Assembly (NCBI GenBank): GCA_049967655.1
Contig: JBMFSH010000043.1
Coordinates: 1-18,332, forward strand
Reading direction: 5' to 3'
Source: Acidobacteriota bacterium
Lineage (GTDB): Bacteria; Acidobacteriota; UBA4820; DSQY01
Length of the DNA stretch: 18,332 nucleotides
The translations under genes and the position numbers were made by a program. The notes under the pieces were generated by a model, which saw only the letters and a list, made by a program, of their open reading frames with translations, was not told the origin of the DNA and did not search any database. Shown here one piece after another: positions 192-16,135 of this stretch. Each line of letters starts with the position of its first letter. The stretch's first letter is position 1.

Positions 192-1586
192 CTACCAGGT
201 GGTGCCCTCCCTCCTGGGCTTGAGCGACCAGAGGTACTCCACGATGTTGTGGAGGTCCTCCTCGTTCACCGTCCCCTTCCACGAGGGCATAGTGAGCGGC
301 GGAGCCGGCTTCGAGGGATCGGCCAGCGGGGGCGTCTTGCCGTCGCGGATGATGGCCATCACATCGGACTTCTTGTAGTCGTCCGCCACGTGGACGAGCG
401 AGGGCACCTGGCCGCCCTGGCTGTTGGGGTTGGCCACGCCGCCCGCGGCCCCCTGCCCGTGGCACCCCACGCAGCCGTAGTGCACGAAGGCCCTGGAGCC
501 GGCTTCCACGGCCGCCTCCTCCGGCGTGACGGGCTTGGCCCCGCCGGCGAGCAGCGCCTCGGCGTCCTTGTCGGTGGCCACCGCCATGAAGCGGATGAGG
601 GCCGTGCGCTCGTTGGCGGTGAGGTCGTAGGCGGGCATGGTGGAGCCGGGCGACACGAGCGCGGGGTTCACGAAGTGCTCGTCCAGCCAGCGAGCCGAGT
701 GGCGCCGGGTGACGCCCTCGAGGTCGGGGCCGGACTTCCCGCCGACCCCGCCGATGCTGTGGCACGCGATGCAGTTCTTCCGGGCGAAAAGTTCGCGGCC
801 GTCCGTGATGCTGGGGATCACGCTCTCGCTGGTGTAGGCGTTGGACATCTCTTCACCGGTGAGAGAGAGCATGAAGTAGGTCAGGTCCTTGGCCTGGCTG
901 GAGGTGAAGTGGAAGTTGGGCATAACCGAATTAGGCGAGACGGCCCTCGGGTCGAGGAAGTGCTTCTCGAGCCAGGCCGGGTCGCGGCGCGTGGCCCCTT
1001 CCCGGCTCAGGTCCGGTCCGATCGTTCCCCCCACGCCGCGGAGCCTATGGCACCCCCGGCAGCCGTGGGTGTCGAAGAGCCGCCTGCCCGCCGCCAGCTC
1101 CGGAACGCCCGGCACGTCGCCCTTCGTGTGGCACTGCCCGCAGGAGGCACGGACGTATTCGCGCGGCAGGAGGGGCTGGTGCCAGTTGGCCACCCGGCCG
1201 TGGGCGGCCGCCACGTCCGTGGCCAGGCCCTGGCCGCCGTGGCAGATGGTGCATCCGAAGCGGGAGGGCGGGTGCCTGCTGATGCCGGGATGGTAGGAGA
1301 AGGGCTCCGGCGCCCCCTTCATGGCCGGGTTCTCCACGCCCTGGTGGCAGGTTGTACAGCGGTCCACCCGCTGGAGGCCCGGAAGGATGATCTGGGCGAT
1401 GGCCACGGGGGCCTCCTCCACGGCGGCCTTGGCGGCGGCGTTGGGCTCGGATTGGGCCTCCAGGCGGTGGTAGCGCCGCTGGTAGGCGGCCCAGTCGGGC
1501 CTGGCCGCGCGCGCCAGGGCCAGGCCCAGGAGGACCATGTTGGCGAGGCTGAGGAGGAAGACGACGAACCGCGCCCGGTCCCTCAT
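192..1586 (-). CDS. Membrane-anchored hexaheme cytochrome c, cytochrome c subunit of the Rieske/cytochrome b complex (464 aa)
   Basis: True start ATG at 1586 ([14 protein letters not shown]...), an ATGA overlap with the cyt b stop. The longer 762-aa ORF is an upstream shadow extension. N-terminal hydrophobic helix and six CxxCH motifs (CTTCH, CTICH, CGQCH, CRGCH, CIACH, CVGCH). The last three sit in class-I-like domains with MP axial Met motifs. Confidence 0.9.
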
Positions 1587-2827
1587 GCGCCCCCCCCGGC
1601 GCCTTTGGCCCACGGCCAAACCCAGGCCCACCCCGCTCCCCGGCAGTACAGGCCGATGAGGAGCAGGACGAGATAGGAAAGCACCACGAGCGCGAAGAGC
1701 GAGAGGGCCAGAACCCTCTCCCTCGGCCTCCTGCTGGGGTTCCTGTCGTAGTAAGGAAGGAAGAGCAGCGCGAGAACCAAGAGGCTCGGCAACAGGATCC
1801 CCGAGAGGGCGGGCGAGTGGCTCACCAGCTCCTGGACGCCCAGGAAGTACCAGGGGGCTTTGGCGGGGTTGGGGGTCTTGGAGGGATCGGCCGTCTCCGA
1901 GAGCGGGGCATTGTAGAGCAGGGCCAGGGCCATGACCGCCGCCGAGGTCGCCAGGAAGGCGGCGCCCTCGCGAAGGAAGGCGTAGGGGTAGGAGAAGACG
2001 ACCTCCTCCTCCTCGGGGACCAGCACCTCGAAGGTCGGTTTGCCGGTCACGATTCCCATGAGCCCGTAGCTCTTCTCCGGGGATGACGGGATCGAGGTTT
2101 CCAGCGGCGGCGAGGAGGGCTCCTTCGGCCCGGACGGGGAGGGGGCCAGCCCTCCGTCCTTCCGGATCCGCCAGAGGTGGACCATGACCAGGGCCGCCGC
2201 GAGACCCGGCAGGACCGCCACGTGCAGGACGTAGAACCTCAGGAGGGCCTGGGTGCCCAGGGAATGGCCGCCCAGCAGGAGAACCTTGAGGACGGGACCC
2301 ACCAGAGGGGCCGAGGCCACGATGTTGGTTCCCACGGTGATCGCCCAAAAGGCCTTCTGGTCCCAGGGCAGGAGGTACCCCGTGAAGGAGAGGGTGAGGA
2401 CGAGGAAGAGGAGCAGGACCCCCACCACCCAGTTGAACTGCCTCGGCTCCTTGTAGGCCCCCGCGAAGAACACGCGGCACAGGTGGAGGAACACCGCCAC
2501 CACCAGGAGCTGGGCGGCCCAGCGGTGCATGTTCCTCAGGAAGGGGCCCAGGAACACCACGAATTGGAGGTCCTTCATGTCCTGGTAGGCCCTCGGGGGG
2601 TAGGGGTGGTAGTAGAACATCAGGGCCAGCCCCGTTGCGCCCAGGATGAGCAGGAGGAAGAAGGAGACGAAGCCGAGGTAGCCCGTGTGGCGGAGCCTCA
2701 GGTGCTCCTTGCGGACCTTGGCGGGGTGGATGTGGAGCCAGAGGTTGTAGAAGACGAGCTCGCTCCGCCCCTTCTGGGTGCTCGGCGGGTCTCCCCTGAA
2801 GATGCTGCGGAGGATGGATTTCAGCAT
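1583..2827 (-). CDS. petB: Cytochrome b, fused b6-type N-terminus plus subunit IV (414 aa)
   Basis: Start ATG at 2827 ([10 protein letters not shown]), just after the Rieske stop. Heme b ligands in [17 protein letters not shown] and [19 protein letters not shown]. Also [24 protein letters not shown] and the Qo-site variant [11 protein letters not shown]. Confidence 0.93.
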
Positions 2828-2829
2828 GG

Positions 2830-3291
2830 TCAGGACGGCACCAGCAGGTGGTAGGAGTCGGAGACGGGGCGGTTCTTGTCGACCTGGAGCTGGCCGTCCT
2901 TCGAGAGGGTGACCTCGAGCCACCTCAGGGGCCGGGGGGCCGGGCCGTGCAGCACGGCCCCGTCGGCGGCGAAGACGCTGCCGTGGCACGGGCAGTCGAA
3001 CTGCCGGTCGCGCTCGGACCACTGGACGGTACATCCCAGGTGGGTGCAGACGGCGCTCGCGGCCGAGAAGCCCTTCGCCGGGTCGTGGAAGAGGTAGACC
3101 TTCTCGGCGGGGAGAAAGACCGGCTGTCCCGGCGGAAAGTCGGCGGGATAGCCGACCTTGAACCGCCGCGCCGGCCCGTAGAACACGCCGGGGAGGAGGA
3201 AGCGGAAGAACCCGACCACTCCCATGCCGGCGGTGACGAGCAGGGCCACGGCGCTGGCGGTGGAGAGCGAGAGGAAGCTCCTTCGGTTCAT
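2830..3291 (-). CDS. petC: Rieske [2Fe-2S] protein of a Rieske/cytochrome b complex (153 aa)
   Basis: Tat motif NRRSFL followed by a TM helix, box I CTHLGC, box II CPCHGS, SD-like GGGAGGG upstream. Confidence 0.95.
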
Positions 3292-3325
3292 GCCGTCCCT
3301 CCCAGGCGCGGGACCGTGCCGGCCC

Positions 3326-5185
3326 CTACCGCGCCGTCTCGCGGCGCCGCTCCTCCAGGGCCTCCATGGTGATGGCCCCCGTGGGGCAGCGCTGGGCGCA
3401 GAGGGCGCACCGGGTGCAGCGCGTCTCGTCCTTCAGAATCGCCGTCGCGGCCCCGGGCCGGAGGCTCCCCGGCTTCACGCCGAAGCGCGCCCGGACGAGC
3501 GCGTCCAGGTCGCGGTCCCCCGCGAGATGCGACAGGTCCGCCAGCTTCAGGCAGGATTCCGGGCAGATGTCCACGCAGCCATTGCACAGGATGCACTTGG
3601 AGGAATCGAAGATGGTGTTCACCTGGCAGTTGAGGCACCGGGAGGCCTCCGCGCGGCCCGCGGCGTCGTCGTAGCCCAGCTCCACCTCGGCGATCCCGAC
3701 GCGGCGGTTGGTGGGCAGCGACGGCATGGGCTGGCGGGGGGTCCGCAGGCAGGCGGCCGGGAGGCTCCAGCCGGGGAGGACGCGGAACCGGCCGGTGCCC
3801 GTCTCGGAGGAGTCTCCGCCCAGGTAGCGGTGAATGGATCGGGCCGCCCTGTGGCCGTCGGCCACGGCGTCCACCAGCAGGCGTGGTCCGAAGGCCACGT
3901 CGCCTCCCGCAAAGACGCCGTGGGCCGTAGTTCCCAGCTCCGATCCCACGGAGACGTAGCCATGGCGGGAAACGCCCACCCCCTCCTGGCCCGTCAGGAA
4001 GCTCAGGTCCGCCTGCTGGCCGATGGCGAGGACCACGCTCTCGCAAGCCAGATGCCGCTCCTCCTGGCCGAAGGCGGGAGCGAACCGCCCCTCCTCGTCG
4101 TAGACCGAGAGGCAACGGCGGATCCGCAGGCCGGAAGCCCTGCCGCCCTCGCCCAGGATCTCCATGGCGCCCCAGCCGCTCTCCACCAGGACCCCTTCGG
4201 CCTCCGCCTCGCGCACCTGCCACTCGTAGGCGGACATCTTCTCCCGCGGTTCGAGGCTGAGCAGGTGCACGGAGCGGGCCCCCGTCCTGAGCGCCATGCG
4301 GGCCGCCTCGATGGCGGAGAAGTAGGCCGAACCGGTCGGCTCCGGGGGGCGGCTCTCCTCGACCTCCTCGCCCACCAGCGGCTCCTGCAGAAGCCTGAGG
4401 GCGGAGCGCGCCACGTCCACCGCCACGTTGCCCGAGCCCAGCACCACCACGCGGGGACCGAGCTCCACCTGGTAGCCGAGGTTGGCGTTGATGAGGAGGT
4501 CGATGCCCTGGAGGACGCCGTCGAGGTGGGCGCCCGGCATCTCGATCTCCCTCCCCCGGCTCAGCCCCGTCGCCAGCATCACCGCGTCGAAGCGGGAGCG
4601 CAGGGAGGACCAGGGGAGGTCCCGCCCGAGGGTCGTACGCAGGTGGAGGCGGATGCCGAGGGCGAGGATCTGCTGGACCTCCATGTCAATGACCTCCCGG
4701 GGGAGGCGGTAGTGCGGTACGCCCAGGTAGAGCATGCCGCCCGGGACGGGGGCCGACTCGAAGACCTCCACGTGGTAGCCCCAGAGGGCCAGGTCGTGGG
4801 CGCAGGTGAGGCCGCACGGCCCGGCGCCCACCACGGCCACCCGCTTGTCCGGCTTGGGGGCCGGCGGCGAGCGGTGGCGCGCGGGGTCGTGGCCGAGGCC
4901 CAGGTTGTGGTGATCCGTGGCGAAGCGCTTCAGGGCGCAGATGGCCACGGGGGCGTCTATGGCGCCCCGGCGGCAGGCCTGCTCGCAGGGGTGGGCGCAG
5001 ATGCGCCCCAGGACGTAGGCGAAGGGGTTGCCGAGGCGGGCGAGCTCGTAGGCCCTCTCGTCCTCCGAGGCGGCGATGGCCTGGACGTAGGCGTGGCACT
5101 CGCTGAGGATGGGGCAGGCCGCGCGGCAGGAGATCTGTTCCCGGTAGTAGGCTTCGTCCGGAACGACCACGCGAAAGGCCACCAT
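3326..5185 (-). CDS. FAD/NAD(P)H-dependent iron-sulfur oxidoreductase (GltD/NfnB/DsrL-like) with C-terminal 2x[4Fe-4S] ferredoxin domain
   Basis: N-terminal CRAACP and RICAHPCEQAC, FAD site VAVVGAGPCG, ATG motif, NAD(P) site VLGSGNVAVD, AGGD, EASRCLNC, then CILCNGCVDICP and CTRCALCAQRCP. No signal peptide. ATG 5185 has AAGGTG upstream; GTG 5194 is an alternative start. Confidence 0.9.
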   Translation of the reverse strand: MVAFRVVVPDEAYYREQISCRAACPILSECHAYVQAIAASEDERAYELARLGNPFAYVLGRICAHPCEQACRRGAIDAPVAICALKRFATDHHNLGLGHDPARHRSPPAPKPDKRVAVVGAGPCGLTCAHDLALWGYHVEVFESAPVPGGMLYLGVPHYRLPREVIDMEVQQILALGIRLHLRTTLGRDLPWSSLRSRFDAVMLATGLSRGREIEMPGAHLDGVLQGIDLLINANLGYQVELGPRVVVLGSGNVAVDVARSALRLLQEPLVGEEVEESRPPEPTGSAYFSAIEAARMALRTGARSVHLLSLEPREKMSAYEWQVREAEAEGVLVESGWGAMEILGEGGRASGLRIRRCLSVYDEEGRFAPAFGQEERHLACESVVLAIGQQADLSFLTGQEGVGVSRHGYVSVGSELGTTAHGVFAGGDVAFGPRLLVDAVADGHRAARSIHRYLGGDSSETGTGRFRVLPGWSLPAACLRTPRQPMPSLPTNRRVGIAEVELGYDDAAGRAEASRCLNCQVNTIFDSSKCILCNGCVDICPESCLKLADLSHLAGDRDLDALVRARFGVKPGSLRPGAATAILKDETRCTRCALCAQRCPTGAITMEALEERRRETAR

Positions 5186-5237
5186 GGGCTTCACCTTAGC
5201 CCCAGCGGGGCAAAAAGGGAATAGCGGCGCTCCGGCG

Positions 5238-6608
5238 CTAGGCGACCGAGGCGGCCGCCGGAACCGGCCCAGCGGTTTCGCCCCCCTCGCCCTCGGGAAG
5301 GTAGCTCTCCAGCCGCTCGGCGGTCTCCTGCACCCCCTCCCTGCCCTCCTCGATCTCCCAGATGGAGATGATGGGGAAGAGCTTGGTAAATCCCATGTAG
5401 ACCAGGATGAAGAGGGCGAAGCAGCCGGCCATCAGGGAGACCTCCACCCAGCTCGGTGTGTAGTGGACGTTGTAGCGGGGGATGCGCGGGTTGGACAGGG
5501 TGGGGATCACGATGGTGAAGCGTTCGAGCCACATGCCCACGTTGATCAGGAGCGAGGCGATGACCGTACCGGTAATGGTCCTGAACCGCTTCACCCCCAG
5601 GATGACGAGCGGGACGGGCAGGCAGCAGATGACCATGGCCCAGAAGTAGGGCGCGAAGGGGCCGGTGAGCTTGGACATCATGACCCTGATCTCGTCGGGG
5701 CTGTTGCCGTAGTAGGTCGTAATGTACTCGGCGAAGGTGAAGTAGGTCCAGAGAAGCGTCATCACCAGGAGGAGACGGCCCAGGTAGTCGAAGTGCAGGG
5801 GCTTGAGGAAGGCCTCCAGGTGGCAGCCCTTCCGGATGATGGCCATGGCCACGATGATGGCCGCGATCCCCGAGTAGATCGCCCCCACCACGAAGTAGGG
5901 CCCGAAGATGCTCGAGTGCCACATGGGTTGGATGGTCATGGCGAAGACCCATGACACCACCGTGTGTACCGAGACGGCGATGGGTACCATGATGACGGCC
6001 ATGATGGCGATGGCGCGGTTCAGGAGCTTCTTCTGCCTCTCGGTCCCCGTCCAGCCCAGGGAGAGCGGCCCGTAGAGCCAGCGCCGGTGGGGAAGCTTGT
6101 CCCGAAGGATGGCCGAGTCCGGAATGGTCGGGAGGTAGAGGTAGAGCACGGAGCCCGTCAGGTAGGTGGTGATGGAGAGGACGTCCCAGAGCAGGGGCGA
6201 GGTGAGGTGCGGCTTGAAGATCACGTTGAAGAGCCGGTCCTCGCGGCCCAGGTCAATGATGACGTTGGAGGCGCCGATGGCGATGACGGCCACCGTGATG
6301 ATCTCGGCGGCTCGTGTGATGGGTCGTCGCCACTCGGCCTTCGTCAGGCGGAGGATGGCCGAGATGAGCGTGCCGGCGTGGCTGACGCCGATGAAGAAGA
6401 CGAAGTTGGTGATGTAGAAGCCCCAGTAGACGGGCCTTCCCATACCCGTCACGCCCAGGCCGCGCTGGAGCTGGTAGTACCAGGCGTAGAGGGCCCAGAG
6501 CACGATGGCCCCCAATCCCGCCGCCGTGAACCAGAAGAGGCGGGAGGTGTCCACGACGGGGGGGATGAGCGCCTTCTCTTCGTAGGTCCAGTCCTCGCGG
6601 CGGTTCAC
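5238..6608 (-). CDS. nrfD: NrfD/PsrC-family quinone-interacting membrane subunit (ActC/QrcD-like, 456 aa)
   Basis: GTG start at 6608 overlaps the upstream TGA (GTGA) with SD GGAGGT. Motifs WGFYITNFVFFIGVSHAGTLISAIL, WRRPITRAAE, DLGR, SPLLWD, WHSSIFGPYF, GMWLERF. About 10 hydrophobic segments. Confidence 0.92.
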   Translation of the reverse strand: MNRREDWTYEEKALIPPVVDTSRLFWFTAAGLGAIVLWALYAWYYQLQRGLGVTGMGRPVYWGFYITNFVFFIGVSHAGTLISAILRLTKAEWRRPITRAAEIITVAVIAIGASNVIIDLGREDRLFNVIFKPHLTSPLLWDVLSITTYLTGSVLYLYLPTIPDSAILRDKLPHRRWLYGPLSLGWTGTERQKKLLNRAIAIMAVIMVPIAVSVHTVVSWVFAMTIQPMWHSSIFGPYFVVGAIYSGIAAIIVAMAIIRKGCHLEAFLKPLHFDYLGRLLLVMTLLWTYFTFAEYITTYYGNSPDEIRVMMSKLTGPFAPYFWAMVICCLPVPLVILGVKRFRTITGTVIASLLINVGMWLERFTIVIPTLSNPRIPRYNVHYTPSWVEVSLMAGCFALFILVYMGFTKLFPIISIWEIEEGREGVQETAERLESYLPEGEGGETAGPVPAAASVA

Positions 6609-7291
6609 TTGCCCACCTCCCTCAGAAAGTAGACCTTGGGCCGGGTGCCCAGCTCGGCCAGGAGACGGAAGGCCCTCTCGTGCCGCGAGAGGCGGTGCAC
6701 TTCCGATTTCTCGTCGTCCAGATCGCCGAAGGAGATGGCGTTGGGCGGGCAGATCTCCGCGCAGGCGGGCTGGTAGTCCTCCTCGCGCATGGGGCGCCGC
6801 TCCCACGCCGCCCGCTCCCTGGCGGCCTGCAACCGCTGGTGGCAGAAGGTGCACTTCTCGACCACGCCCTTGGGACGCACGGAGACGTCGGGGTTGAGGC
6901 CCTCGGCCATGGGCTGCGGCCACTCCGGCTTGCGCCAGTTGAAGAGCTTCACGCCGTAGGGGCAGGCGTTGGTGCAGTAGCGGCAGCCGATGCAGCGCGG
7001 GTAGATCTGGGCCACGATCCCGTCGGGGTTCTGGTAGGTGGCGTTCACCGGACAGACCTTGGTGCAGGGCGGGTCGTCGCACATGAGGCAGGGCCTCGGC
7101 TTCAGGGAGGCGCGCAGGGAGGGGAAGCTCCCCTCGATTTCGGCCAGCAGCTCGATCCAGAGCATGGTGCGCCCCTTGGCCGCGGCCTCGGGGTCGGTGA
7201 AGGGCACGTTGTTCTCCACCTTGCAGGCCACCACGCAGGCCTGGCAGGCCGTGCAGCGGTCCAGATCGATGACCATTCCGTACCGGGGCAT
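6605..7291 (-). CDS. Four-cluster iron-sulfur electron-transfer subunit (PsrB/NrfC/QrcC/ActB2-like, 228 aa)
   Basis: YGMVIDLDRCTACQACVVAC, CLMCDDPPCTKVCP, CIGCRYCTNACPY, KCTFC...PACAEICP, GTRPKVYF. SD AGGAGG upstream. Confidence 0.93.
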   Translation of the reverse strand: MPRYGMVIDLDRCTACQACVVACKVENNVPFTDPEAAAKGRTMLWIELLAEIEGSFPSLRASLKPRPCLMCDDPPCTKVCPVNATYQNPDGIVAQIYPRCIGCRYCTNACPYGVKLFNWRKPEWPQPMAEGLNPDVSVRPKGVVEKCTFCHQRLQAARERAAWERRPMREEDYQPACAEICPPNAISFGDLDDEKSEVHRLSRHERAFRLLAELGTRPKVYFLREVGK

Positions 7292-7300
7292 GAAGTCCTC

Positions 7301-9442
7301 CTACGCTTTGCGGATCCGGACGGTGGTTCGCTGGAGGTCCGGTAGGCGCGAGGACGCATCCAGCGTGTCCTGAACGATGGAGAGCGGGTCGGCCATGAGG
7401 CCGCGGGCGAAGCGGTTCCGAGAGGGGCCGCTGACGGCCATGGCGGCCACGCCGGGGCGGAGCCCCCTGAAGACGCGGGCCTTGGCGCGGATCTCGCCCT
7501 TCGGCCCCTGCACGACCACGGCGTCCCCCTCCGCGACGCCCATGCCGGCGGCATCCGTCGGGCTCAGTTCCACAAAGGCGCCCCAGAGCTCCCGCCCCAG
7601 GGGATCGGCCGCCTCCAGGAGGAAGGGCAGTGAACTACCGTTGGCGCCGGCGAAGGCCATGGGTTCGTAGAGGTAGAGGGAGAGGGTGCCATCGCTCTCC
7701 GCCCCATTGCTCGCGGGAGACGGCGCGCCCTGCACCGCGGCAAGGTTCCACCGTTCCGGCTGGGCGGGCCGGGCGGGCTTGGGCATCCAGAGGCCGCCCG
7801 CCTTCCTGGCGCTGGAGAGCGCCGCGGCGGGGTTCGGTGGGGCCGCTTCGCCGGCCTCGCTCCCGGGCAGAGTGGTGAAGCCCTCCGCCAGGAGCGTGCC
7901 GGCCCAGCCCTGGAAGGCCCTCTCGCGATCGGCGCCGGGGGCCGCGTCCAGGCTCTGACCCGTTTCGCCGGCCAGGGCGAGCGCCAATTCGGCCGGGGAG
8001 AGGGCCTCGGGAGGCGCCGCCAGCACGGGCTCGGCGTAAGCCCAGAGGAGCCCGCCCTCCGGGGCGGCAACGAGGTCGTCCTGGAAGGACTCGAAGGGAT
8101 GCGCCGCCGGCAGCACGAGGCGGACCGCCTCCGTCGTTGGCGAAGCCTCCAGGGAGAGGCAGGCGGAGAAGGGGAGGCTTTTCAGGAGGGAGCGCCACGC
8201 CTCGGGCCGCGTGGAGCGTCCCAGCGGATCGTCGTTTACGATCAGGACGCAGCGCAGGGAGCCCGAGTGAGCGGTCAGGGTGTCCAGCACGGCGTCGTCC
8301 GAGAGCGGCGAGGCTGGGAGGGTGGAGGCCGCGGCGGCGACCGGGTGAGTCGGTGCACCCGGCTGGCCGAGGAGGAGGTTCAGGGCCAACACCGCCGCGG
8401 CCTCCTGGGGGGTGGACCACGGGAGGCTCACGCTTCCGCCGCCGGCCACGGCCGAAGGCCGGTGGGCGGCGAGGTCGCGGGCAAGGGCTTCGATGGTGGC
8501 GGCGGGGACGCCGCAAATGGGGCTCGCCTTCTCGGGAGCGTAGCCGGCGAGGACCATCTTGGAGAAGGCGTCGTACCCGTCGGCGCGCTGCTTGACGGCG
8601 GCCTCGTTCACGGCGCCCTGCCGGATCAGAGCCGCCGCCAGGGCCAGGGCGAGAACCCCGTAGCTGCCGGGCGCGCAGGGAATCCACTCGTCGCTCTTCA
8701 TGGCCGTGACCGAGAAGCGGGGCTCCACCTGGACGAGGCGCCCCCGCACCTCCTGGCCCTGGCGGAAGTGCCCGTAGGCGCGCATGAGGGGGGCCGGAGA
8801 CGCGCTCGCCTCCAGCAGGGGCGCGCCCAGGGAGAGCACGTAGGCGCAGTGGGCGAGATCCAGCGTGGTGGCGGCGGGACGGCCGGTCAGCAGGCCGTGG
8901 GCCTGGACCACGTCGAGAGATTCCTGGCGGAAGGCGACGGGATCGGCCTTGAGGCCCTGCCCGAGGGACTGCCAGAGCGTCCTCGTGAGGCCGCGCTCGG
9001 TGCCCGACAGGATGGCCACGCCGCCCGGGGCGGAGGAGGCCTCGCGCATCTTCCGGGCGAGGAGGCGGACGGCGTCTCCCTTCTTCATGGAGCGCCCCTC
9101 GAAGGCGGCCCCGAGCAGCCGGTCGGGGTGGTAGAGCCGCTGGAGGGAGGCCATCCCCTTCATGCAGAGCGAGTCGCCGTTGGTGGGAAAGCGCGGGTTG
9201 CCCTTCAGCCCCACCACCCGGCCGTCCACGCGGCGCGCGATGACGCCGCACGAAGCGGGACACTCGCGGCAGAGCGTGGGATGGAAGGTGGAGATGCCGC
9301 TGGGGCGCAGGAAGGCGGCCGGATCGGGCTTGCCCTGAAGGCCCAGGAGCCCCTTCACGGGCCGCGAGCAGCTCGCCAGGGCCGCGGCGGCGGCGCCGCC
9401 CGCCACGCTGAGCTGGATGAACTCCCTTCTCTTGATGGCCAT
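7301..9442 (-). CDS. Tat-exported lipoprotein with molybdopterin-oxidoreductase fold (QrcB/ActB1-like, 713 aa)
   Basis: Twin-arginine KRREFIQ, lipobox LASC, N-terminal CRECPASC-x27-CMKG, LYHPDRL, VQVEPRFSVTAMKSDEWIP, VLPAAHPFES, and C-terminal VELSPTDAAGMGVAEGDAVVV...GLRPGV (molybdopterin dinucleotide-binding-domain-like). Confidence 0.88.
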   Translation of the reverse strand: MAIKRREFIQLSVAGGAAAAALASCSRPVKGLLGLQGKPDPAAFLRPSGISTFHPTLCRECPASCGVIARRVDGRVVGLKGNPRFPTNGDSLCMKGMASLQRLYHPDRLLGAAFEGRSMKKGDAVRLLARKMREASSAPGGVAILSGTERGLTRTLWQSLGQGLKADPVAFRQESLDVVQAHGLLTGRPAATTLDLAHCAYVLSLGAPLLEASASPAPLMRAYGHFRQGQEVRGRLVQVEPRFSVTAMKSDEWIPCAPGSYGVLALALAAALIRQGAVNEAAVKQRADGYDAFSKMVLAGYAPEKASPICGVPAATIEALARDLAAHRPSAVAGGGSVSLPWSTPQEAAAVLALNLLLGQPGAPTHPVAAAASTLPASPLSDDAVLDTLTAHSGSLRCVLIVNDDPLGRSTRPEAWRSLLKSLPFSACLSLEASPTTEAVRLVLPAAHPFESFQDDLVAAPEGGLLWAYAEPVLAAPPEALSPAELALALAGETGQSLDAAPGADRERAFQGWAGTLLAEGFTTLPGSEAGEAAPPNPAAALSSARKAGGLWMPKPARPAQPERWNLAAVQGAPSPASNGAESDGTLSLYLYEPMAFAGANGSSLPFLLEAADPLGRELWGAFVELSPTDAAGMGVAEGDAVVVQGPKGEIRAKARVFRGLRPGVAAMAVSGPSRNRFARGLMADPLSIVQDTLDASSRLPDLQRTTVRIRKA

Positions 9443-9461
9443 GGTCTCTCGGGCTCCTTCC

Positions 9462-9953
9462 CTAGCGGTGACAGGCGTCGCAGTCCGTGGCCGCGTGCAT
9501 CTTCCGGTGGCAGGCGATGCATCGGGTCATGGAGATGGGCAGAAGGGGGGCCGTCAGGGCGCTGGTCTGCCGCTCCATGGGTCCGTGGCACTGCTGGCAG
9601 CGGAGCTGGCCCAGCTCCGTGTGCCGCCGGTGGGAGAAATAGACGTAGTCGGGCAGGTGCGTCACCCTCACCCACGGGACCTCGCCGTCCTTCTTGAAGA
9701 AGGCCTGGATGGGCCGGAAGATCGCCCGGGTGCTGTCGGCGTGGCAGTTCATGCAGATGCGGGTGTGCGGCAGCGTCGCGTGGACCTCGGTGAGGGCGCC
9801 GTTGTGGCAGGCCACGCAGGGCATGTTCAGGTCGTGGACGTGCTTGTAGTGGTTGAAGGCGGCGGGCTGGACCACGTGCGGCACCATGATCGCGTAGGCC
9901 ACCACCCCGGCCGAGACCAGCACGAAGAGCGTGAAAACGATTCTCTGCCACAC
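9462..9953 (-). CDS. actA: Membrane-anchored pentaheme cytochrome c (ActA/QrcA-like, about 163 aa)
   Basis: One TM helix, QPAAFNHYKH, five CxxCH (CVACH, CMNCH, CQQCH, CIACH, CDACH), and the ActA/QrcA-type WVRVTHLPDYVYFSHRRH. GTG 9953 follows SD GGAGGT at 8 nt; the ORF-track TTG 9986 is an alternative start. Confidence 0.9.
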   Translation of the reverse strand: MWQRIVFTLFVLVSAGVVAYAIMVPHVVQPAAFNHYKHVHDLNMPCVACHNGALTEVHATLPHTRICMNCHADSTRAIFRPIQAFFKKDGEVPWVRVTHLPDYVYFSHRRHTELGQLRCQQCHGPMERQTSALTAPLLPISMTRCIACHRKMHAATDCDACHR

Positions 9954-10010
9954 GGGGAACCACCTCCGGCCCGGTCCTCCGGGCAAGCGGCAAACCCTTT
10001 GCGCCCGGAC

Positions 10011-10898
10011 CTAGCGAACGGGGGTCTCGGGCTTCGGCTCCTGCTCCGCCGCGAACTCCTTGGCCAGGGAGGTGAGGCCCGCCATGGCTCCCAGCCCCAT
10101 GGTTTCGACGGCGGTCGATGGGACGATCACCACGGTGGAGTTCTGCCGCATGCCCTCGAGCAGGATGTTCATGGCCCGCAGGTGGAGCGCGACGGGGTTC
10201 CGGATGTAGGAGGAGGCGGCCTCGGAAAACTTATCGGCCACCTGGCGCTCCGAGTCGCCCAGGATCACGCGGGCCTGCCGCTCCCGCTCGGCCTGCGCCT
10301 GCATGGACATGGCGTCCTGGAGGCCCGAGGGGATTTTCACGTCCCGCAGCTCCACCGTCACCACGTGGAGGCCCCAGACCGAGGTGCGCTCCTCGATAAT
10401 GTCCCTGAGCAGGGCATCGATGTGCTGGCGTCCGGTCAGCATCTCCGAGAGGTCGGTCCGGCCGATCACGTCCCTCAGCGCCGTCTGGGCGGCCCACGCC
10501 ACGGCCTCGCGGTAGTCCTCGACCTCGAGGGCGGCCTTCATGGGGTCCACCACTTTCCAGAAGAGGACGGCGTCCACGTCCACGGGGACGCTGTCCTGCG
10601 TCAGCGTCTCCTCGGCGGTGAAGGGGGTGGTGATGGTCCGCAGGTCCATCCAGTAGGGGATGGAATCCACGACGGGAATGATGCCGAAGAGCCCGGGGCC
10701 CTTGAGGCCCTTGAACTTGCCCAGGCGGAGCACGACGGCGCGCTCCCACTGCTTGCCCACGCGCACGGCCAGCAGGAAGAGGATGGCCACGACGGCGCCG
10801 GCCACCGCCACGAGCGGGAACTTGAGCGCCGCGGCCACGATGAAGCCGGCCACCAGGAAAATCGCCGCGATCAGGATGGTAATGGGATGCAAGCCCAT
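10011..10898 (-). CDS. SPFH/band-7 (stomatin-like) membrane protein (295 aa)
   Basis: N-terminal hydrophobic hairpin, WERAVVLRLGK...GPGLFGIIPVVD, LTQDSVPVDVDAVLFWKVVDP, AQTALRDVIG, MQAQAERERQARVILG. ATG 10898 with SD GGAGGG. Confidence 0.93.
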   Translation of the reverse strand: MGLHPITILIAAIFLVAGFIVAAALKFPLVAVAGAVVAILFLLAVRVGKQWERAVVLRLGKFKGLKGPGLFGIIPVVDSIPYWMDLRTITTPFTAEETLTQDSVPVDVDAVLFWKVVDPMKAALEVEDYREAVAWAAQTALRDVIGRTDLSEMLTGRQHIDALLRDIIEERTSVWGLHVVTVELRDVKIPSGLQDAMSMQAQAERERQARVILGDSERQVADKFSEAASSYIRNPVALHLRAMNILLEGMRQNSTVVIVPSTAVETMGLGAMAGLTSLAKEFAAEQEPKPETPVR

Positions 10899-10924
10899 GC
10901 GAGTCCCCTCCACAGTTCGGGGTG

Positions 10925-11491
10925 CTACCACGCCTCGCCCGGCTTCTCCGGGGGAAGCAGGCTGTCCAGATAAGCCACCAGGTCATCCTTCTGCCGCCGG
11001 GTGAGGCGATCCTTGAAGGGCGGCATGTGCAACGGGGGAGCGGGTCCATTGGGGTTGAGCCTGTCGATGATCGGGGCGCCGGCGTCGATCTTGTCGATGA
11101 GTTCGGACCTGGAGTAGTCGCTGCCCACGTGGATCAGCGCGGGCACCTGCTGGCCCGTCTTGGCGTTCGCGTTGCGGACCTTGCCCTGGCCTTCGATGCC
11201 GTGGCATCCCGCGCAGCCGTAGCCGTAGTAGATGCGACGGCCGGCCTCCACTTCAGCGGTGCCGGGCTTGATCTGGGGCCAGACGGCACTCTTACCGAGG
11301 AGCGGGTGACGGCCCTCGCGGGAGTAGCTCAAGCCGGGGTTCCAGCGGATGGCGTTGATGGCCAGCACGCTGTAGAAGGAGAGAAGACCCACAACGGGCA
11401 GCGCCAGCAGGATGGCCAGCCGCCTCGCCGGTTTGTCGACCTCCCCGGGGGTGACCTTCCCCCGGGGAGTGCAGATGGTCTTCTTCGACAT
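10925..11491 (-). CDS. Membrane-anchored monoheme cytochrome c (188 aa)
   Basis: Basic N-terminus plus TM helix (LAILLALPVVGLLSFYSVLAI), GRRIYYGYGCAGCHG, axial Met in HMPPF, C-terminal LVAYLDSL helix. Confidence 0.88.
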   Translation of the reverse strand: MSKKTICTPRGKVTPGEVDKPARRLAILLALPVVGLLSFYSVLAINAIRWNPGLSYSREGRHPLLGKSAVWPQIKPGTAEVEAGRRIYYGYGCAGCHGIEGQGKVRNANAKTGQQVPALIHVGSDYSRSELIDKIDAGAPIIDRLNPNGPAPPLHMPPFKDRLTRRQKDDLVAYLDSLLPPEKPGEAW

Positions 11492-11497
11492 GGATCC

Positions 11498-11923
11498 CTA
11501 CTGCCCCTTCTCCATCTGCTGGATCTGCTCGTCCGACAGGGCCGGGTAGAACTCCTTGGGGTTCTTGTCCTTGCGGTTCTCTTGGTCGTAGACGAGGAAC
11601 TCGAAGATCTTCTTGCCCTGGTCCGGGGAGATCCCGGAGTTGGGCTTGTGCATCATCCGCTTGACGTAGCGCTCCCAAGCGTCGCGGCTCATGGAGGTGT
11701 TGAGAGGGCGCGCCAGGGTGTGGCACTGGTTGCACTTCTCGCGGAAGATCTTGTAATCCTTCTGAATGTCCTTGGGGTAGCCCGAGACGTTGAGCTTGTC
11801 CGGCCCCTTGTCCTGGGGCAGCGCGGGCCCGCCCACCTGGGCCAGCAGGGCCAGGGACAGGGTGGCGCCGGCGGCCAGGGCGCTGAAGGCGGCGAGCGAC
11901 AGCATCCGTCGTTTCTGGATCAT
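11498..11923 (-). CDS. Small periplasmic monoheme cytochrome c (about 141 aa)
   Basis: Signal or anchor peptide, FREKCNQCHTLARP, WERYVKRMM (likely axial Met), KKIFEFLVY. SD GAGGAG lies 8 nt before ATG 11923; GTG 11929 is an alternative start. Confidence 0.85.
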   Translation of the reverse strand: MIQKRRMLSLAAFSALAAGATLSLALLAQVGGPALPQDKGPDKLNVSGYPKDIQKDYKIFREKCNQCHTLARPLNTSMSRDAWERYVKRMMHKPNSGISPDQGKKIFEFLVYDQENRKDKNPKEFYPALSDEQIQQMEKGQ

Positions 11924-11951
11924 GGTCACATCTCCTCGGGGACGAAGCCCC

Positions 11952-13250
11952 TTACCACGCGAGGTCCAGGCCGATCTTCGCCTGTTTGTCCTCGTTGTAG
12001 GCCCCCGTGATGTCGTTGCCCTTGGCGTCGATGAACTGGGCGTAGAGCTTGACGTTCCCGAGTCGGTCCACGGTCTTGATGACGCCGGCCATCCAGGTGG
12101 TGTTGTTGGAGGCGTAGAGGCCGAAGTCGGGCTGGTCGTAGTTGGACTTGTCGTAGCGGCCGTAGACCACCAAGCCCTGCGCGATGTAGTAGTCCGCCTC
12201 GCCGAAGTAGGCCTTTGTGTTGAAGGTGTTCACGGGGCCGTTGAAGGTGCTCTGCCAGTCCTCGCGGCCGCCCATATACCCCCCGAGCACGTCCAGGTGG
12301 TCGAAGAACTTGTAGTGGCCGAAGAGGCCCCACCGCTTGGCTGTGGGGACGTAGGTGAACTGCTGCGGCGTGCCCGCGTTCTGGATGGTGTCCTTGCGGC
12401 CGTTGTAATACATGGCCGAGACGCTGCCGTTGTCGCCGATCAGGAAGTCGGCGTCGAACATCACGTCCTTGTGGTTGTAAGTGCTCCCGTTGCCGATGCC
12501 GTTGCCGTTCACGTCCAGGCCGTTGGCCACCTTGGCGGTGAGGCCAACCACGTACTTGTAGTCGGGGCTCATGAAGGTGTAGCCCCCCTCCACCATGCCC
12601 GTGCTCTGGGCGAGGTAGATGCCGTTGGGAGAGGAGGAGCCGAAGCCCAGGGCGCTGTCGTCGTCCGTGAGGCCGTAGAGGTCGGCGGCGGAGTAGCCCT
12701 CCACGAGGTGCGACTTGCCCAGCCCCACGAAGTAGGAGTTGCGGACCGTGCCGCCGGTCCAGTCGAACTTGGCGCGCTCCATGTCGGAGGTGCCGCCGTC
12801 CTGGTAGGCCACGTACTCGCCGAAGTAGGAGAAGCCGCCCGACTCGGGAATGGAGCCTCCGAAGAGGATGGAGACCTGGTCCAGGTTGGCGCTGGAGGCG
12901 CTCGTGCGGGGGCTGCCCGTGGCCGTGGTGGTGTCGTGGGAGACCGAGGTGCGCATGTAGACGGCGGCCGCGTCGGTGAGCTTCCAAGGGATGTTTTCGT
13001 CAAGGCTCGCCACCTTCTTGGGGGGCTTATGCGTGTCGATGTCAGGCGGCATGCGGTAGCCGAGGCGCTTGAACTCGTAGCCGAACTTGGTCAGGCGGGG
13101 AAAGACCGTGTGGCAGGTGAAGCAGGAGATGTGGTACTTGCGGGCGAAGGCGGGGATCGCTTTGGGGCTCGGCGCCAGGATGGCGAATGCCGCCACCGCC
13201 GCGAAGCCCACGCCCACCCACCTGGTCCAACGCTGAGGCTTGTTCTCCAT
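11952..13250 (-). CDS. cyc2: Cyc2-like outer-membrane cytochrome c-porin fusion (432 aa)
   Basis: ATG 13250 with SD GGAGAAGGA. Signal peptide followed directly by IPAFARKYHISCFTCHTVFPRLTKFGYEFKRLGY, the Cyc2/Cyt572-type P-x-FAR-x5-CxxCH-x3-P-x-L-xx-FG-xx-F-xxx-GY motif. The remainder is amphipathic, aromatic-rich beta-strands ending in a barrel-type C-terminus AKIGLDLAW. Confidence 0.85.
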   Translation of the reverse strand: MENKPQRWTRWVGVGFAAVAAFAILAPSPKAIPAFARKYHISCFTCHTVFPRLTKFGYEFKRLGYRMPPDIDTHKPPKKVASLDENIPWKLTDAAAVYMRTSVSHDTTTATGSPRTSASSANLDQVSILFGGSIPESGGFSYFGEYVAYQDGGTSDMERAKFDWTGGTVRNSYFVGLGKSHLVEGYSAADLYGLTDDDSALGFGSSSPNGIYLAQSTGMVEGGYTFMSPDYKYVVGLTAKVANGLDVNGNGIGNGSTYNHKDVMFDADFLIGDNGSVSAMYYNGRKDTIQNAGTPQQFTYVPTAKRWGLFGHYKFFDHLDVLGGYMGGREDWQSTFNGPVNTFNTKAYFGEADYYIAQGLVVYGRYDKSNYDQPDFGLYASNNTTWMAGVIKTVDRLGNVKLYAQFIDAKGNDITGAYNEDKQAKIGLDLAW

Positions 13251-13283
13251 GGTACGTCCTTCTCCAAAGTGAGGCGCCTTCCC

Positions 13284-13300
13284 TGCACTCGGTGTGCCAA
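13284..13300 (-). promoter_or_regulatory. Sigma-54 (-24/-12) promoter of the redox operon
   Basis: Minus strand TTGGCACACCGAGTGCA: TGGCAC, with GG-N10-GC spacing exact. It lies about 35 nt upstream of the cyc2-like ATG and directly downstream of a GAFTGA-containing activator gene. Confidence 0.85.
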
Positions 13301-13361: not shown

Positions 13362-13425
13362 TGGGGCAGCGTCCCCACCGAAGCCCGCAGCCACCGGGTT
13401 GGAGGGGCGTGGAATTCATTCCCCA
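13362..13425. promoter_or_regulatory. Candidate upstream activator (enhancer) sites for the sigma-54 activator
   Basis: Palindrome TGGGG-N6-CCCCA at 13362-13377 and degenerate copy TGGAA-N6-CCCCA at 13410-13425, centred about 96 and 144 bp upstream of the predicted +1. Confidence 0.45.
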
Positions 13426-14786
13426 GGGCGGGAACTGCGTTCATCCCCCAGCATGGCGTAGAAGGTCTTCCGGTCCACCCCGGCCTCGCGGGCGGCGGCA
13501 CTCACGTTGCCCTCGTTGCGGTTCAGGAGCCTTTGGGCATAGGCGCGCTGGAAGCTCCCGAGGTACTTCTCACGGGCCTCCCTCCAGCCCAAGCGGCTGA
13601 GGTCCTCCGCGGAGCCGCGGGCCAGCCCCTCCTCCCTCTCCAGGTCCGAGGCCTCGATCTGCTTACCGGTGCAGAGCACCAACAGCCGCTCGATGGTGTT
13701 CTTCAGCTCCCTCACGTTGCCCTTCCAGGGGCGCTGGAGGAGGGCCTCGTAGAAGGCCGGCGAGGCACTGACCTCCTTGCCGTACTGCCGGGTGAAGCGC
13801 TGGATGAAGAAGCGGGCCAGGGCGGCGACGTCCTCGGGGCGCTGACGCAAAGGAGGCAGCTTGAGGGTCACCACGGCGAGGCGGTAGAAGAGCTCCTCGC
13901 GGAAGGCGCCCTCGGCGATCTTGGCCTGCAGGTCCTGGTTGGTGGCGCAGAGGATCCGGCAGTCCACGCGGATGGGCTCCACGGCGCCCACCCTGCGGAT
14001 CTCCCGCTCCTCGACGAAGCGGAAGAGCTTGGTCTGAAAATCCACCGGCAGGTCGCCGATCTCGTCCAGGAAGAGGGTCCCGCCCTGGGCCGCCTCGATG
14101 AGCCCGCGCTTGGGGGCCAGCGCGCCCGTGAAGGCCCCTTTCTCGTGACCGAACAGCTCGCTCTCGACGAGGGAGGCGGGAAGGGCCGTGCAGTCGATGG
14201 GGACGAAGGGGGCGCCCCGGCGCGCGCTCTGAGAGTGGATCCAGCGGGCCATCACCTCCTTGCCCGTGCCGCTCTCCCCCAGGATGAGGATGGTGGCATC
14301 GGTGGCCGCCGCCTGCCTGGCCTTGGCGATCTCGGCCTGCATGAGGGCGCTGTGGCTCTGGCAGGCGTCGGCCTCTCCGAGCTCCTCGAGGCGGCCCCGC
14401 AGGGACTCGACCTCCCGCTCCATGTCCCGCCGTTCGAGGGCGCGGCGGACGGCGAGGAGGAGGTCCTCCCGCTTGAAGGGCTTGCGCAGGTAGTCGAAGG
14501 CGCCGCTGCGCATGGCCAGGACGGCCCCCTCGATGGAGCCGTAGGCCGTCAGGAAGACCACCGGCACCTCGGGATGCGCCTCGTGGAGCTTGGCGAAGAG
14601 CTCCTCGCCCCGCATGCCCGGCATGCGGATGTCCAGAAGCAGGGCGTCCGGCGGGCGTTCGAGGAGGTGGGCGAGGCCCTCGCGCGGATCGGTGAAGGGC
14701 TCCACGGTGACACCGGGCAGGCGCAGCAGGCGCCGGATGTTCTCGCAAAGTTCGGGTTCGTCGTCGATGACCACCACTCGGCTCAC
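13416..14786 (-). CDS. NtrC-family sigma-54-dependent response regulator (REC-AAA+-Fis HTH, 456 aa)
   Basis: VVVIDDE, LLLDIRMPG (phospho-Asp), GESGTGKE, ESELFGHEKGAFTGA, LFLDEIG, WKGNVREL, C-terminal HTH NVSAAAREAGVDRKTFY. GTG start overlaps the kinase stop (GTGA). Confidence 0.96.
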   Translation of the reverse strand: MSRVVVIDDEPELCENIRRLLRLPGVTVEPFTDPREGLAHLLERPPDALLLDIRMPGMRGEELFAKLHEAHPEVPVVFLTAYGSIEGAVLAMRSGAFDYLRKPFKREDLLLAVRRALERRDMEREVESLRGRLEELGEADACQSHSALMQAEIAKARQAAATDATILILGESGTGKEVMARWIHSQSARRGAPFVPIDCTALPASLVESELFGHEKGAFTGALAPKRGLIEAAQGGTLFLDEIGDLPVDFQTKLFRFVEEREIRRVGAVEPIRVDCRILCATNQDLQAKIAEGAFREELFYRLAVVTLKLPPLRQRPEDVAALARFFIQRFTRQYGKEVSASPAFYEALLQRPWKGNVRELKNTIERLLVLCTGKQIEASDLEREEGLARGSAEDLSRLGWREAREKYLGSFQRAYAQRLLNRNEGNVSAAAREAGVDRKTFYAMLGDERSSRPGE

Positions 14787-15916: not shown

Positions 15917-16135
15917 TCTACACCAGCTCGCGGGAGGACAGAAGCGGAAGGCGCCGGCCACCGCCGCATCCCATCGTGGACCCCTGGAATGGGTGGTCTT
16001 ACCGGTGATGCGACCAAGCCCCGTGAACGGGGGAGCGCCGCGGCTCTGGCCGGGCGCGGGGGACGGGTTGACCCGTGATGCTGGAGCCCCGGCCGCGGCC
16101 GCGCAATCGTCCGGCGCCCAGAGGGCGCCTCCGTC

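Follow-up and report, generated by a model that had tools for sequence, protein, structure and literature searches.

We analysed an 18,332-bp stretch of DNA, the whole of contig C43 (JBMFSH010000043.1) of the Acidobacteriota genome G000, referred to here as the window. It carries a 12-gene unit in which a Cyc2-like cytochrome-porin is encoded together with a pair of quinone-reactive complexes and a flavoprotein for pyridine nucleotides in the cytoplasm. The genome comprises 3.14 Mb in 147 contigs and is 99.3% complete and 0.5% contaminated. Six genes of the unit, namely cyc2, cytA and those for the flavoprotein, a Rieske protein, cytochrome b and a hexahaem cytochrome, are termed the core; the remaining six, cytB, an SPFH gene and the genes for subunits A to D of a further complex (ABCD), lie between cytA and the flavoprotein gene and are termed the insert (Table 1). 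Papers are cited by PubMed Central number and for what their accessible text states.

Architecture and components of the operon

All 12 genes are located on the minus strand and extend from position 13250 to 192. With gene starts picked by a codon model, the intergenic gaps amount, in gene order, to 28, 6, 26, 57, 19, 9, -4, 52, 34, 2 and -4 bp, none being 60 bp or longer. The unit contains 14 CxxCH motifs for haem c (1+1+1+5+6), while a fifteenth match, CTFCH in the iron-sulfur subunit C, is a piece of an iron-sulfur motif and not a haem site. Searches with domain and family hidden Markov models (HMMs) found no terminal oxidase or reductase among the 12 genes. The last gene ends 191 bp before the contig end, and we considered a terminal enzyme hidden just beyond it; none was evident among the genes past the operon end in the congeners G002 and G003 and in the sister-genus genome G011, and these genes have neither a CxxCH motif nor a match to operon proteins. 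Compared with three congeners, all 12 genes have ratios of nonsynonymous to synonymous substitution (dN/dS) of 0.05-0.52. The insert genes resemble the core genes in the GC content of third codon positions (0.88-0.96) and their codon use is host-like, which together with the dN/dS values rules out a recent or decaying insert. The unit is intact and under purifying selection.

The only match to a sigma-54 (-24/-12) promoter in the window, scored against what we take to be the consensus, precedes cyc2 and is kept in the congeners G001, G002 and G003 as well as in G011. The same pattern was matched in 8/200 shuffled windows and 17 times genome-wide. No sigma-70-like promoter was found in the window, and within the 12 genes the coding strand holds no terminator-like site apart from a weak 5-bp stem inside the cytochrome b gene (1693-1681); the whole window has 8 such sites against a chance expectation of 6.5 +/- 2.9. 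A gene for an NtrC-type activator lies upstream of cyc2 here and in 24 of 26 close Acidobacteriota core loci (L035-L060), a histidine kinase gene is found upstream of most core loci, and rpoN is present in the host genome. No extracytoplasmic sensor domain was recognised in the kinase, which may sense within the membrane, for example the quinone state. We infer that the 12 genes are co-transcribed. In one of three metatranscriptome runs of the same mine drainage study (X2), contigs of about 95% identity cover 11358-11900 (cytA-cytB) and 13070-13259; they demonstrate neither transcription nor a single transcript.

Table 1. Features of the operon and its upstream region, in order of transcription
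Feature	Position	Strand	Remarks
Sensor histidine kinase	14783..15961	-	HisKA and HATPase domains; short hydrophobic N-terminus; start uncertain (15793-15961)
NtrC-type sigma-54 activator	13416..14786	-	Receiver domain; GAFTGA motif intact
Sigma-54 (-24/-12) promoter-like site	13284..13299	-	About 35-50 bp upstream of cyc2 start; sole match in window
Cyc2-like fused monohaem cytochrome c-porin, 432 aa	11952..13250	-	N-terminal Cyc2 motif, CxxCH, PxL; 16-strand barrel (predicted) ending in Trp
CytA, exported or anchored monohaem cytochrome c	11498..11923	-	Weakly like Chlorobium PscC/c-551 (E 0.002)
CytB, membrane-anchored class I monohaem cytochrome c	10925..11491	-	Met-ligand motif; insert member
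SPFH/band-7 membrane scaffold protein	10011..10898	-	Insert member; beside the same module in metagenome loci L205, L208, L214
Subunit A, membrane-anchored pentahaem cytochrome c, QrcA/ActA-like	9462..9953	-	Alternative start 9986
Subunit B, Tat-exported molybdoenzyme-like protein	7301..9442	-	FS0 cysteines C58, C61, C65, C93 kept
Subunit C, 16-Cys protein, four [4Fe-4S] clusters	6605..7291	-	Cysteine motifs
Subunit D, NrfD-type quinone-binding membrane protein	5238..6608	-	ActC-sister subfamily
GltD/NfnB/DsrL-like FAD and iron-sulfur oxidoreductase, cytoplasmic	3326..5185	-	C-terminal 2x[4Fe-4S] domain
Rieske protein	2830..3291	-	Tat (twin-arginine) signal; Ser/Phe type like Kustd1480
Cytochrome b6 fused to subunit IV, 414 aa	1583..2827	-	His101/115/202/217; APWY Qo motif; extra conserved His32
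Membrane-anchored hexahaem cytochrome c	192..1586	-	Three haems of c7-like type plus three class I domains that carry Met motifs

Cyc2 has been defined by the motif AxPxFAR[Q/K][T/Y] ahead of CxxCH and by PxL behind it (PMC8406198), and the porin of the window carries all three. Residues A31, F35, A36, R37, C43, C46, H47, P51 and L53 are unchanged in 88/88 aligned porin homologues (88 of the 120 listed). The AlphaFold2 model of the porin contains 16 long strands at a predicted local distance difference test (pLDDT) score of 83.6, with the haem region below 50, and Foldseek matched it to porins including OprO/OprP (E 1e-10 to 1e-14). Searches of Pfam, NCBIfam and PDB sequences gave no match, and matches in the ESM Atlas were confined to Acidobacteriota clusters. 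By sequence and predicted fold, the first gene thus encodes a Cyc2. The adjoining cytA comes after cyc2 in the close loci and before the ABCD module in others, and CytB shares 38-50% identity with cytochromes that precede the ABCD module in metagenome loci. Pairs of cyc2 and cytA also stand alone in G016, G020 and G008. Second pairs (cyc2 36-41% identical) occur in G002, G003 and G011 (L031:5353-9534, L032:11800-16215, L033:7600-9325), followed in G002 and G003 by an unannotated open reading frame of 730-760 aa, and a solitary cytA paralogue of 43% identity, with no cyc2, is located on another contig of the host (G000:C45:12671-13096, L130). Cyc2-like genes directly ahead of genes of the type of alternative complex III (ACIII) were seen in Myxococcota records and in G012 (L070, L073, L074, L079, L080, L097; L026).

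Subunit B of the insert has Gln173 at the position of PsrA Cys173, presumably the molybdenum ligand of that enzyme, and did not match PF00384; its FS0 cysteines are invariant in 18/18 subunit B rows, and no gene for a TorD/NarJ-type chaperone lies within the unit. The glutamine, the missing PF00384 match and the missing chaperone gene make an active molybdoenzyme of the Psr/Arr type unlikely, and subunit B is probably free of molybdenum. Among its listed homologues none falls between 87% and about 31% identity. In two of two tested relatives a TorD/NarJ-type gene directly follows that of subunit D (L155:6496-7191, L183:11347-12111), a hint that their B subunits may still bind molybdenum. Subunit C differs from the host's ActB2, which misses one cysteine at the quinone-proximal cluster.

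The nearest match of subunit D is ActC (E 5e-71), and it belongs to a large group of 59-74% identity with members from NC10, Tectomicrobia, Omnitrophica, Nitrospinota, Planctomycetota, Rokubacteria and others. We compared it with the list of ActC quinol-site and channel residues in PMC8076601 and extended this comparison to 120 listed homologues. The quinol residues His139, Ser164, Asp169 and Asp253 of ActC correspond to Asp119, Ser137, Asp142 and Val221 in D. Both the His139Asp and the Asp253Val change are present in 120/120 homologues, in which the channel residues are kept; subunit D itself retains all 13 listed positions of the N-side half-channel together with Glu394 and the gate residue Arg395. 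The host's own ActC and four ACIII loci retain His and Asp and form a separate clade. An Asp at the position of ActC His139 also occurs in the host's DsrP and HybB and, by spacing, would be Asp120 of QrcD.

By these comparisons ABCD is neither Qrc nor ACIII and represents a sister subfamily of ActC. A true Qrc was rejected, with none of the four NCBIfam cut-offs passed (bits/cut-off: A 71/180, B 182/440, C 289/400, D 38/570) and D being ActC-like. Against a true ACIII stand the lack of ActD/E/F, the changed quinol residues and the presence of a real ACIII on contig C6; among 40 related loci with 2.5 kb of downstream sequence, an ActDE-like match was found in 2 and ActF in 1. The Geobacter Ext operon was dismissed as well, as matches to the ExtP, ExtQ and ExtS HMMs stay below cut-off.

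In the core, the oxidoreductase binding flavin adenine dinucleotide (FAD) carries four cluster motifs. Its NADP-binding motif YRR is replaced by SLE ([S/C]LE in 34/36 aligned rows, the other 2 being frameshifted), which by the rule established for DsrL, where YRR is tied to the choice between NADP and NAD (PMC7596348), points to NAD as the probable cofactor. The top two PDB matches of the Rieske protein are the Kuenenia structures 9rk4 and 9rk3; a potential of +335 mV is given for the Rieske protein Kustd1480 (PMC12954380) and 200-230 mV for the Ser/Phe type (PMC3509893). Cytochrome b, the sole match in the G000 genome, lacks the haem-ci cysteine and has no cysteine at the CxGG position. Among 37 cytochrome b rows the Qo motif reads APWY in 26 and PEWY in 4, is ambiguous in 1 and is uncovered in 6. 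His32 is present in 32/37 rows. The 4 rows with PEWY carry Glu in its place, and the flavoprotein is missing from their loci, so that His32 and APWY go with the flavoprotein; His32 may be the counterpart of the interface haem ligand proposed for Kuenenia. The hexahaem protein presumably stands in for cytochrome c1/f.

Rieske protein, b6-type cytochrome b/subunit IV, multihaem cytochrome c and FAD/iron-sulfur oxidoreductase are thus co-encoded in the way that PMC12954380 defines the anammox type; a split cytochrome b with haem cN (Cys), also characteristic of that type, is absent here. The Kuenenia complexes carry an NAD(P) flavoprotein together with a hexa- or octahaem cytochrome, and forward bifurcation was proposed for them (PMC12954380). 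We consider the flavoprotein most likely a subunit of such an anammox-type Rieske/cytochrome b complex. Complex prediction for a cytochrome b dimer with the C-terminal domain of the flavoprotein scored 0.34 against 0.01 for the best control; runs agreed in at least 73% of contacts with a partner pLDDT of at least 66. In the benchmark, a pass at or below 0.60 was obtained for 18 of the 157 solved complexes, while of the 215 mismatches two passed, both in this low range; the prediction weakly suggests that this domain docks on the dimer.

A previous sequence-only reading of this DNA had described the 12 co-oriented genes with gaps or overlaps below 60 bp, the single upstream -24/-12 promoter, the 14 CxxCH motifs, the lack of a terminal oxidase or reductase, a Cyc2-like cytochrome-porin and, encoded along with it, two quinone-reactive complexes plus an NAD(P) oxidoreductase of the cytoplasm. 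In all these points it agrees with our results. Its Qrc/ACIII-like complex proved quinone-reactive in likeness and not a member of either family, and its NAD(P) oxidoreductase retained its assignment with NAD as the probable cofactor. It overlooked that the flavoprotein most likely belongs to an anammox-type Rieske/cytochrome b complex, a type described in print.

Distribution and origin of the two modules

The core was traced by a profile search of genome contigs, from which the best 80 of 590 loci were examined. In 24 of the 26 close loci cyc2, cytA and the flavoprotein gene follow each other directly and are succeeded by the genes for the Rieske protein, cytochrome b and the hexahaem cytochrome as far as the contig allows; the other 2 are truncated. 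Neither the SPFH gene nor ABCD occurs in any of the 26. The same insert-less order, at 47-70% identity, is found in G011, which belongs to a sister genus of the same family. More distant Cyc2-like genes accompanied by a flavoprotein-Rieske-cytochrome b block were seen in records of Vicinamibacteria, Blastocatellia, Bacteroidota and Eisenbacteria.

For the ABCD module, the best 80 of 161 metagenome loci were examined, forming 61 clusters at 95% identity. The full 12-gene order lies on a single contig in the congener G001 (1 of the best 80 genome loci) and in the metagenome locus L140 (98% identical; 1 of the best 80 metagenome loci), and is split over two contigs each in G002 and G003. Beyond this genus it was not found among the best 80 genome and the best 80 metagenome loci. 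A close orthologue of subunit D is present in 3 of 24 other genomes of the family, all of them congeners. In architecture and modular origin the operon is very probably the product of a fusion, at genus level, between two modules that are each widespread and uncharacterised. The insert of cytB, SPFH and ABCD genes would have entered the older core in the ancestor of the genus.

Among the 80 metagenome loci, cytA-like genes occur in 19 and cytB-like genes in 12, and one locus (L186) has the order cytB-cyc2-cytA-ABCD; a cytochrome front end common to both modules would offer a simple route for their fusion. MtrAB-like or Cyc2-like conduits are found within 10 kb of D relatives in 13 of 24 clusters that extend at least 8 kb upstream (L140 excluded), a count that comes without a background rate. 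Of eight barrels compared with NCBIfam, 4 exceed the MtrB cut-off, 2 stay below it and 2 (L213, L155) are unmatched; the decahaem cytochromes exceed the DmsE cut-off in 4/4 cases and the L184 barrel passes the Pfam MtrB model. In L186:3501-11674, L184:2020-6601 and L164, Cyc2 or MtrAB-like genes occupy similar places by cytB/cytA, ahead of ABCD, and this position resembles an exchangeable slot.

One further organism (L177:5387-20080 and L178) combines ABCD with a flavoprotein, a Rieske protein of the Ala/Phe type, a split cytochrome b with APWY and four tetrahaem cytochromes (16 haems); no Cyc2 lies within 10 kb upstream in L177. A common origin with this arrangement found no support: the flavoprotein of the window groups with those of insert-less G011 and Terriglobia, and the tree of subunit D, poorly resolved around the window and L177, does not join them.

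These distributions lend no support to one ancient, co-evolved series path, as the sequence-only reading of the gene order would have it, since the full order is restricted to this genus and the core stands without the insert in 24/26 loci and G011. A synteny seen in no other genome would have refuted that reading; the full order recurs in G001 and L140 and, in split form, in G002 and G003, and among the loci examined it does not extend beyond the genus. Outside the operon, and in the same orientation, the window encodes a DEAD-box helicase of RhlE-like type whose tail is long and of low complexity (16136-18013); it is not beside the core in other lineages.

Host metabolism and the direction of electron flow

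The host genome contains a canonical ACIII followed by genes for an aa3-type oxidase (G000:C6:101054-114078, L125), with cytochrome bd 16 kb away, and an apr-qmo-dsr region (G000:C22:5405-24825, L126 and L127) in which DsrAB, DsrK, DsrP and AprA score above cut-off and DsrL is of the YRR type. Also present are a Hyd-2-type hydrogenase, genes of the complex I 49-kDa family, cytochrome c assembly genes and menaquinone genes of the MqnA/D family; a search for MtrB/PioB in the rest of the genome found none. At G000:C5:56714-60736 (L131) a 741-aa COX1-family protein, read as qNOR-like, lies near an octahaem cytochrome with a weak match to the hydrazine dehydrogenase HMM. The host's only RuBisCO, a form III enzyme above cut-off, is encoded with a ribose-1,5-bisphosphate isomerase-like protein and an AMP/thymidine phosphorylase (G000:C30:15492-19140, L128), a cluster that by gene content is of the archaeal type for nucleoside salvage. 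CdhC and phosphoribulokinase (PRK) were not found in this genome of about 99% completeness; markers of the reductive tricarboxylic acid cycle were not searched. The host looks heterotrophic and facultatively anaerobic, and resembles a facultatively sulfate-reducing acidobacterium in which a bc complex and ACIII were up in oxic conditions and 'qrcABCD' was transcribed anoxically (PMC10564751).

The terminal oxidases and cytochrome c assembly genes, for which the sequence-only reading had advised looking in the rest of the genome, are thus there. Its picture of a self-contained module is not supported, as the separate ACIII-aa3, cytochrome bd and Dsr/Qmo systems are possible electron sinks. Nor, within the markers searched, is its rationale of reverse electron transport for autotrophic uptake: neither PRK nor CdhC was detected, and the genome's one RuBisCO is a form III enzyme next to AMP phosphorylase and the isomerase.

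The best reading of the gene content is that of a sigma-54-controlled conduit that would connect menaquinone and NAD(H) with a soluble extracellular redox partner, most likely Fe(II)/Fe(III) or humic shuttles. That the operon serves electron exchange at the cell surface we regard as likely. Cyc2 would swap electrons with the periplasmic class I cytochromes CytA, CytB and the hexahaem protein, and this pool would meet menaquinone at two junctions. At the first, ABCD would act without molybdenum as a plain cytochrome c:menaquinone oxidoreductase, probably moving protons via its ActC-type channel. At the second, the quinone reaction at the APWY site would be coupled to the two branches of the Rieske/cytochrome b complex, a high-potential one formed by the Rieske protein and the hexahaem cytochrome and a low-potential one leading over haems b, four iron-sulfur clusters and FAD to NAD. 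With the high branch at +250 to +330 mV, NAD at -320 mV and their mean near menaquinone, this complex could run either way, turning quinol into NADH and reduced cytochrome or drawing on NADH and cytochrome reduced by Fe(II) to make quinol.

As the main direction we tentatively prefer electron uptake into menaquinone, a choice that falls just short of an even chance. Electrons from Fe(II) would enter by Cyc2 and reach menaquinone uphill via ABCD or confurcated with NADH at the Rieske complex, and the quinol would then be consumed either by O2 respiration (bd, ACIII-aa3) or by the Qmo/Dsr chain, whose genes lie outside the operon, so that a heterotroph would gain supplementary mixotrophic energy rather than autotrophy. 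The evidence leans this way by the Cyc2 proteins tested so far, three of which are iron oxidases (PMC8406198), by APWY, proposed as a mark of reverse operation (PMC4122944), by the Met-ligated carriers and by the O2 sinks. Several points weigh against it. The distant Cyc2 homologues are rated uncertain in PMC8406198 and APWY complexes are described as uncharacterised in PMC4122944. Arithmetic on the potentials in PMC12954380 and PMC8406198 puts menaquinone about 250-300 mV uphill of cytochrome c, and a host in which markers of the Calvin-Benson-Bassham (CBB) and Wood-Ljungdahl pathways were not found has little need for NADH from Fe(II). In QrcD, Asp70 is essential and Asp120 is not (PMC6303296, PMC13059093); as Asn68 of subunit D aligns with a HybB Asp that serves as proxy for Asp70, the essential residue is apparently replaced and the Asp in D does not fix a direction. 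The association of ABCD with surface conduits also has its limits: 11 of the 24 long clusters, including L147, the nearest by tree path, have no conduit, the L213 barrel is unmatched by the MtrB model, the barrel model was seeded from these very loci, and 9 of the 13 conduit-linked loci fall in one clade, leaving about four or five independent cases.

The opposite direction, which we hold to be possible and yet distinctly less probable, would have menaquinol from NADH, H2 or organics oxidised by ABCD and a bifurcating Rieske complex, with soluble Fe(III) or humics receiving the electrons by way of CytA/CytB and Cyc2, and with NADH regenerated by the low-potential branch; the two junctions would then serve acceptors of different potential. 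Geobacter ImcH, CbcL and CbcBA offer an analogy, since they serve acceptors of different potential. The heterotrophic, facultatively anaerobic host with its uptake hydrogenase and Dsr leans towards export, as does the kinship of D to the quinol-oxidising ActC with channel residues kept, and both count against our preference for uptake. Forward bifurcation as proposed for Kuenenia (PMC12954380), the relatives of the module beside DmsE/MtrB-type conduits and an Fe(III)-reducing acidobacterium cited in PMC8528874 fit it too. Export fits less well with the accessible text of PMC8406198, in which no Cyc2 reduced Fe(III), with a single haem that suits soluble partners only, with the alteration of both His139 and Asp253 of the ActC quinol site in D and with the link of APWY to reverse operation (PMC4122944).

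A strict series loop, in which electrons pass from Cyc2 through ABCD to menaquinol and on to the Rieske complex, one going to NAD and one being recycled to give NADH without complex I, appears improbable. The gene order suggests it, and L177/L178 likewise place ABCD ahead of the flavoprotein-Rieske-cytochrome b genes, if with no Cyc2 within 10 kb upstream in L177. A tetrahaem-type cytochrome downstream of ABCD, present in 29/40 related loci, is missing here, and ABCD may share the hexahaem protein instead. The core, however, is complete without ABCD in 25 loci (24 close loci and G011), which makes a series path non-obligatory and also tells against the coupled conduit that we prefer; moreover, the host has complex I 49-kDa-family matches, and the CO2-fixation markers CdhC and PRK were not found. 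In its boldest form, equally improbable, Cyc2 would take electrons from Fe(II), iron minerals or metal to menaquinone at ABCD and the Rieske complex would split the quinol between NAD and cytochromes. Iron outside the cell would in that case supply a sulfate-reducing acidobacterium with NADH, complex I not being needed, as well as with quinol for Qmo/Dsr, and the L177 lineage would represent a second origin of the pairing of ABCD with a Rieske complex. Least probable to us is that no extracellular transfer takes place, the operon serving a periplasmic substrate, redox sensing or defence against O2/NO with ABCD as a passenger on the promoter. The solitary cyc2-cytA pairs of G016, G020 and G008, the second copies in G002, G003 and G011, the lone cytA paralogue on C45 and the many Cyc2 holders not known as iron oxidisers (PMC8406198) would suit such a role; purifying selection on insert genes of host-like codon use and the repeated pairing of both modules with outer-membrane cytochrome conduits weigh against it.

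Significance and relation to known systems

Every part of the operon has a known relative. In the open literature, with subscription journals and supplements outside the search, we found no description that pairs Cyc2 with a Rieske complex linked to NAD, or that pairs it with ABCD; reviews of multiple Rieske complexes and of gene clusters for ACIII may have a bearing here. The accessible texts of PMC13741234, PMC10654088, PMC8528874, PMC4643136, PMC5566968 and bioRxiv 2022.05.06.490989 report Cyc2 with ACIII or bc1 per genome, not per operon. Quinol bifurcation to NAD(P) by the anammox Rieske/cytochrome b complex has been proposed, and in the accessible text not shown (PMC12954380). The operon family places a complex of this type in common Acidobacteriota of soil, peat and sediment, one close Cyc2 homologue (P0086) coming from a named isolate, Telmatobacter sp. 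DSM 110680. Anammox bacteria, by comparison, are not readily manipulated. The operon also points to a Cyc2 as the protein with which the high-potential branch is likely to exchange electrons, and porin-cytochrome conduits may have an inner-membrane partner, so far unrecognised, in the large cross-phylum sister subfamily of ActC with its two fixed residue swaps. Should the operon work as proposed, sulfate-reducing Acidobacteriota would couple iron and sulfur cycling directly, and Cyc2 as a marker of iron oxidation would need care in such genomes.

With the Cyc2 iron oxidases of A. ferrooxidans (Cyc2), Mariprofundus (Cyc2PV-1) and Leptospirillum (Cyt572) (PMC8406198) the porin shares the N-terminal motif, CxxCH, PxL and the 16-strand barrel. 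It differs from them in its gene neighbours, which are those for quinone complexes and a flavoprotein and not, as in the rus operon, for rusticyanin and an oxidase, and in residing in a sulfate-reducing acidobacterium in which no CBB or Wood-Ljungdahl markers were detected. Desulfovibrio QrcABCD (PMC6303296, PMC13059093) resembles ABCD in the order A-B-C-D, a separate molybdenum-free B, the quinone-site Asp and a sulfate-reducing host; ABCD is set apart by five haems, no [3Fe-4S] motif, FS0 cysteines in B, a D subunit near ActC and class I cytochromes as neighbours in place of TpIc3. ACIII (ActABCDEF; 6F0K, 6BTM, 6LOD, 8K9E) has the same pentahaem A, molybdoenzyme-like B, iron-sulfur subunit and ActC-like D, whereas here ActD/E/F are lacking, B is split and keeps its FS0 cysteines, four complete [4Fe-4S] motifs are present, and D has His139 changed to Asp, Asp253 to Val and Tyr323 to Thr.

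The second junction finds its counterpart in the Kuenenia stuttgartiensis complexes Kustd1480-1485 and Kuste4569-4574 (PMC12954380), which have a Rieske protein (of the same type in Kustd1480), a b6-type cytochrome b, a hexahaem protein replacing c1/f, a cytoplasmic oxidoreductase with FAD and four clusters and possibly a counterpart of the extra conserved N-terminal His. Unlike in Kuenenia, cytochrome b and subunit IV are fused here, the haem-ci cysteine is missing, the nucleotide-binding motif is of the NAD type, and the operon is tied to Cyc2 and a sigma-54 regulator in a non-anammox host. The schemes put forward for neutrophilic iron oxidisers (PMC4643136, PMC5566968, Tenderiales preprint) likewise lead from Cyc2 over periplasmic cytochromes and a quinone:cytochrome c complex towards NADH and include ACIII and bc1 in one genome, but there the components are encoded at separate loci and NADH is formed by complex I, whereas here they are united in one operon with its own flavoprotein.

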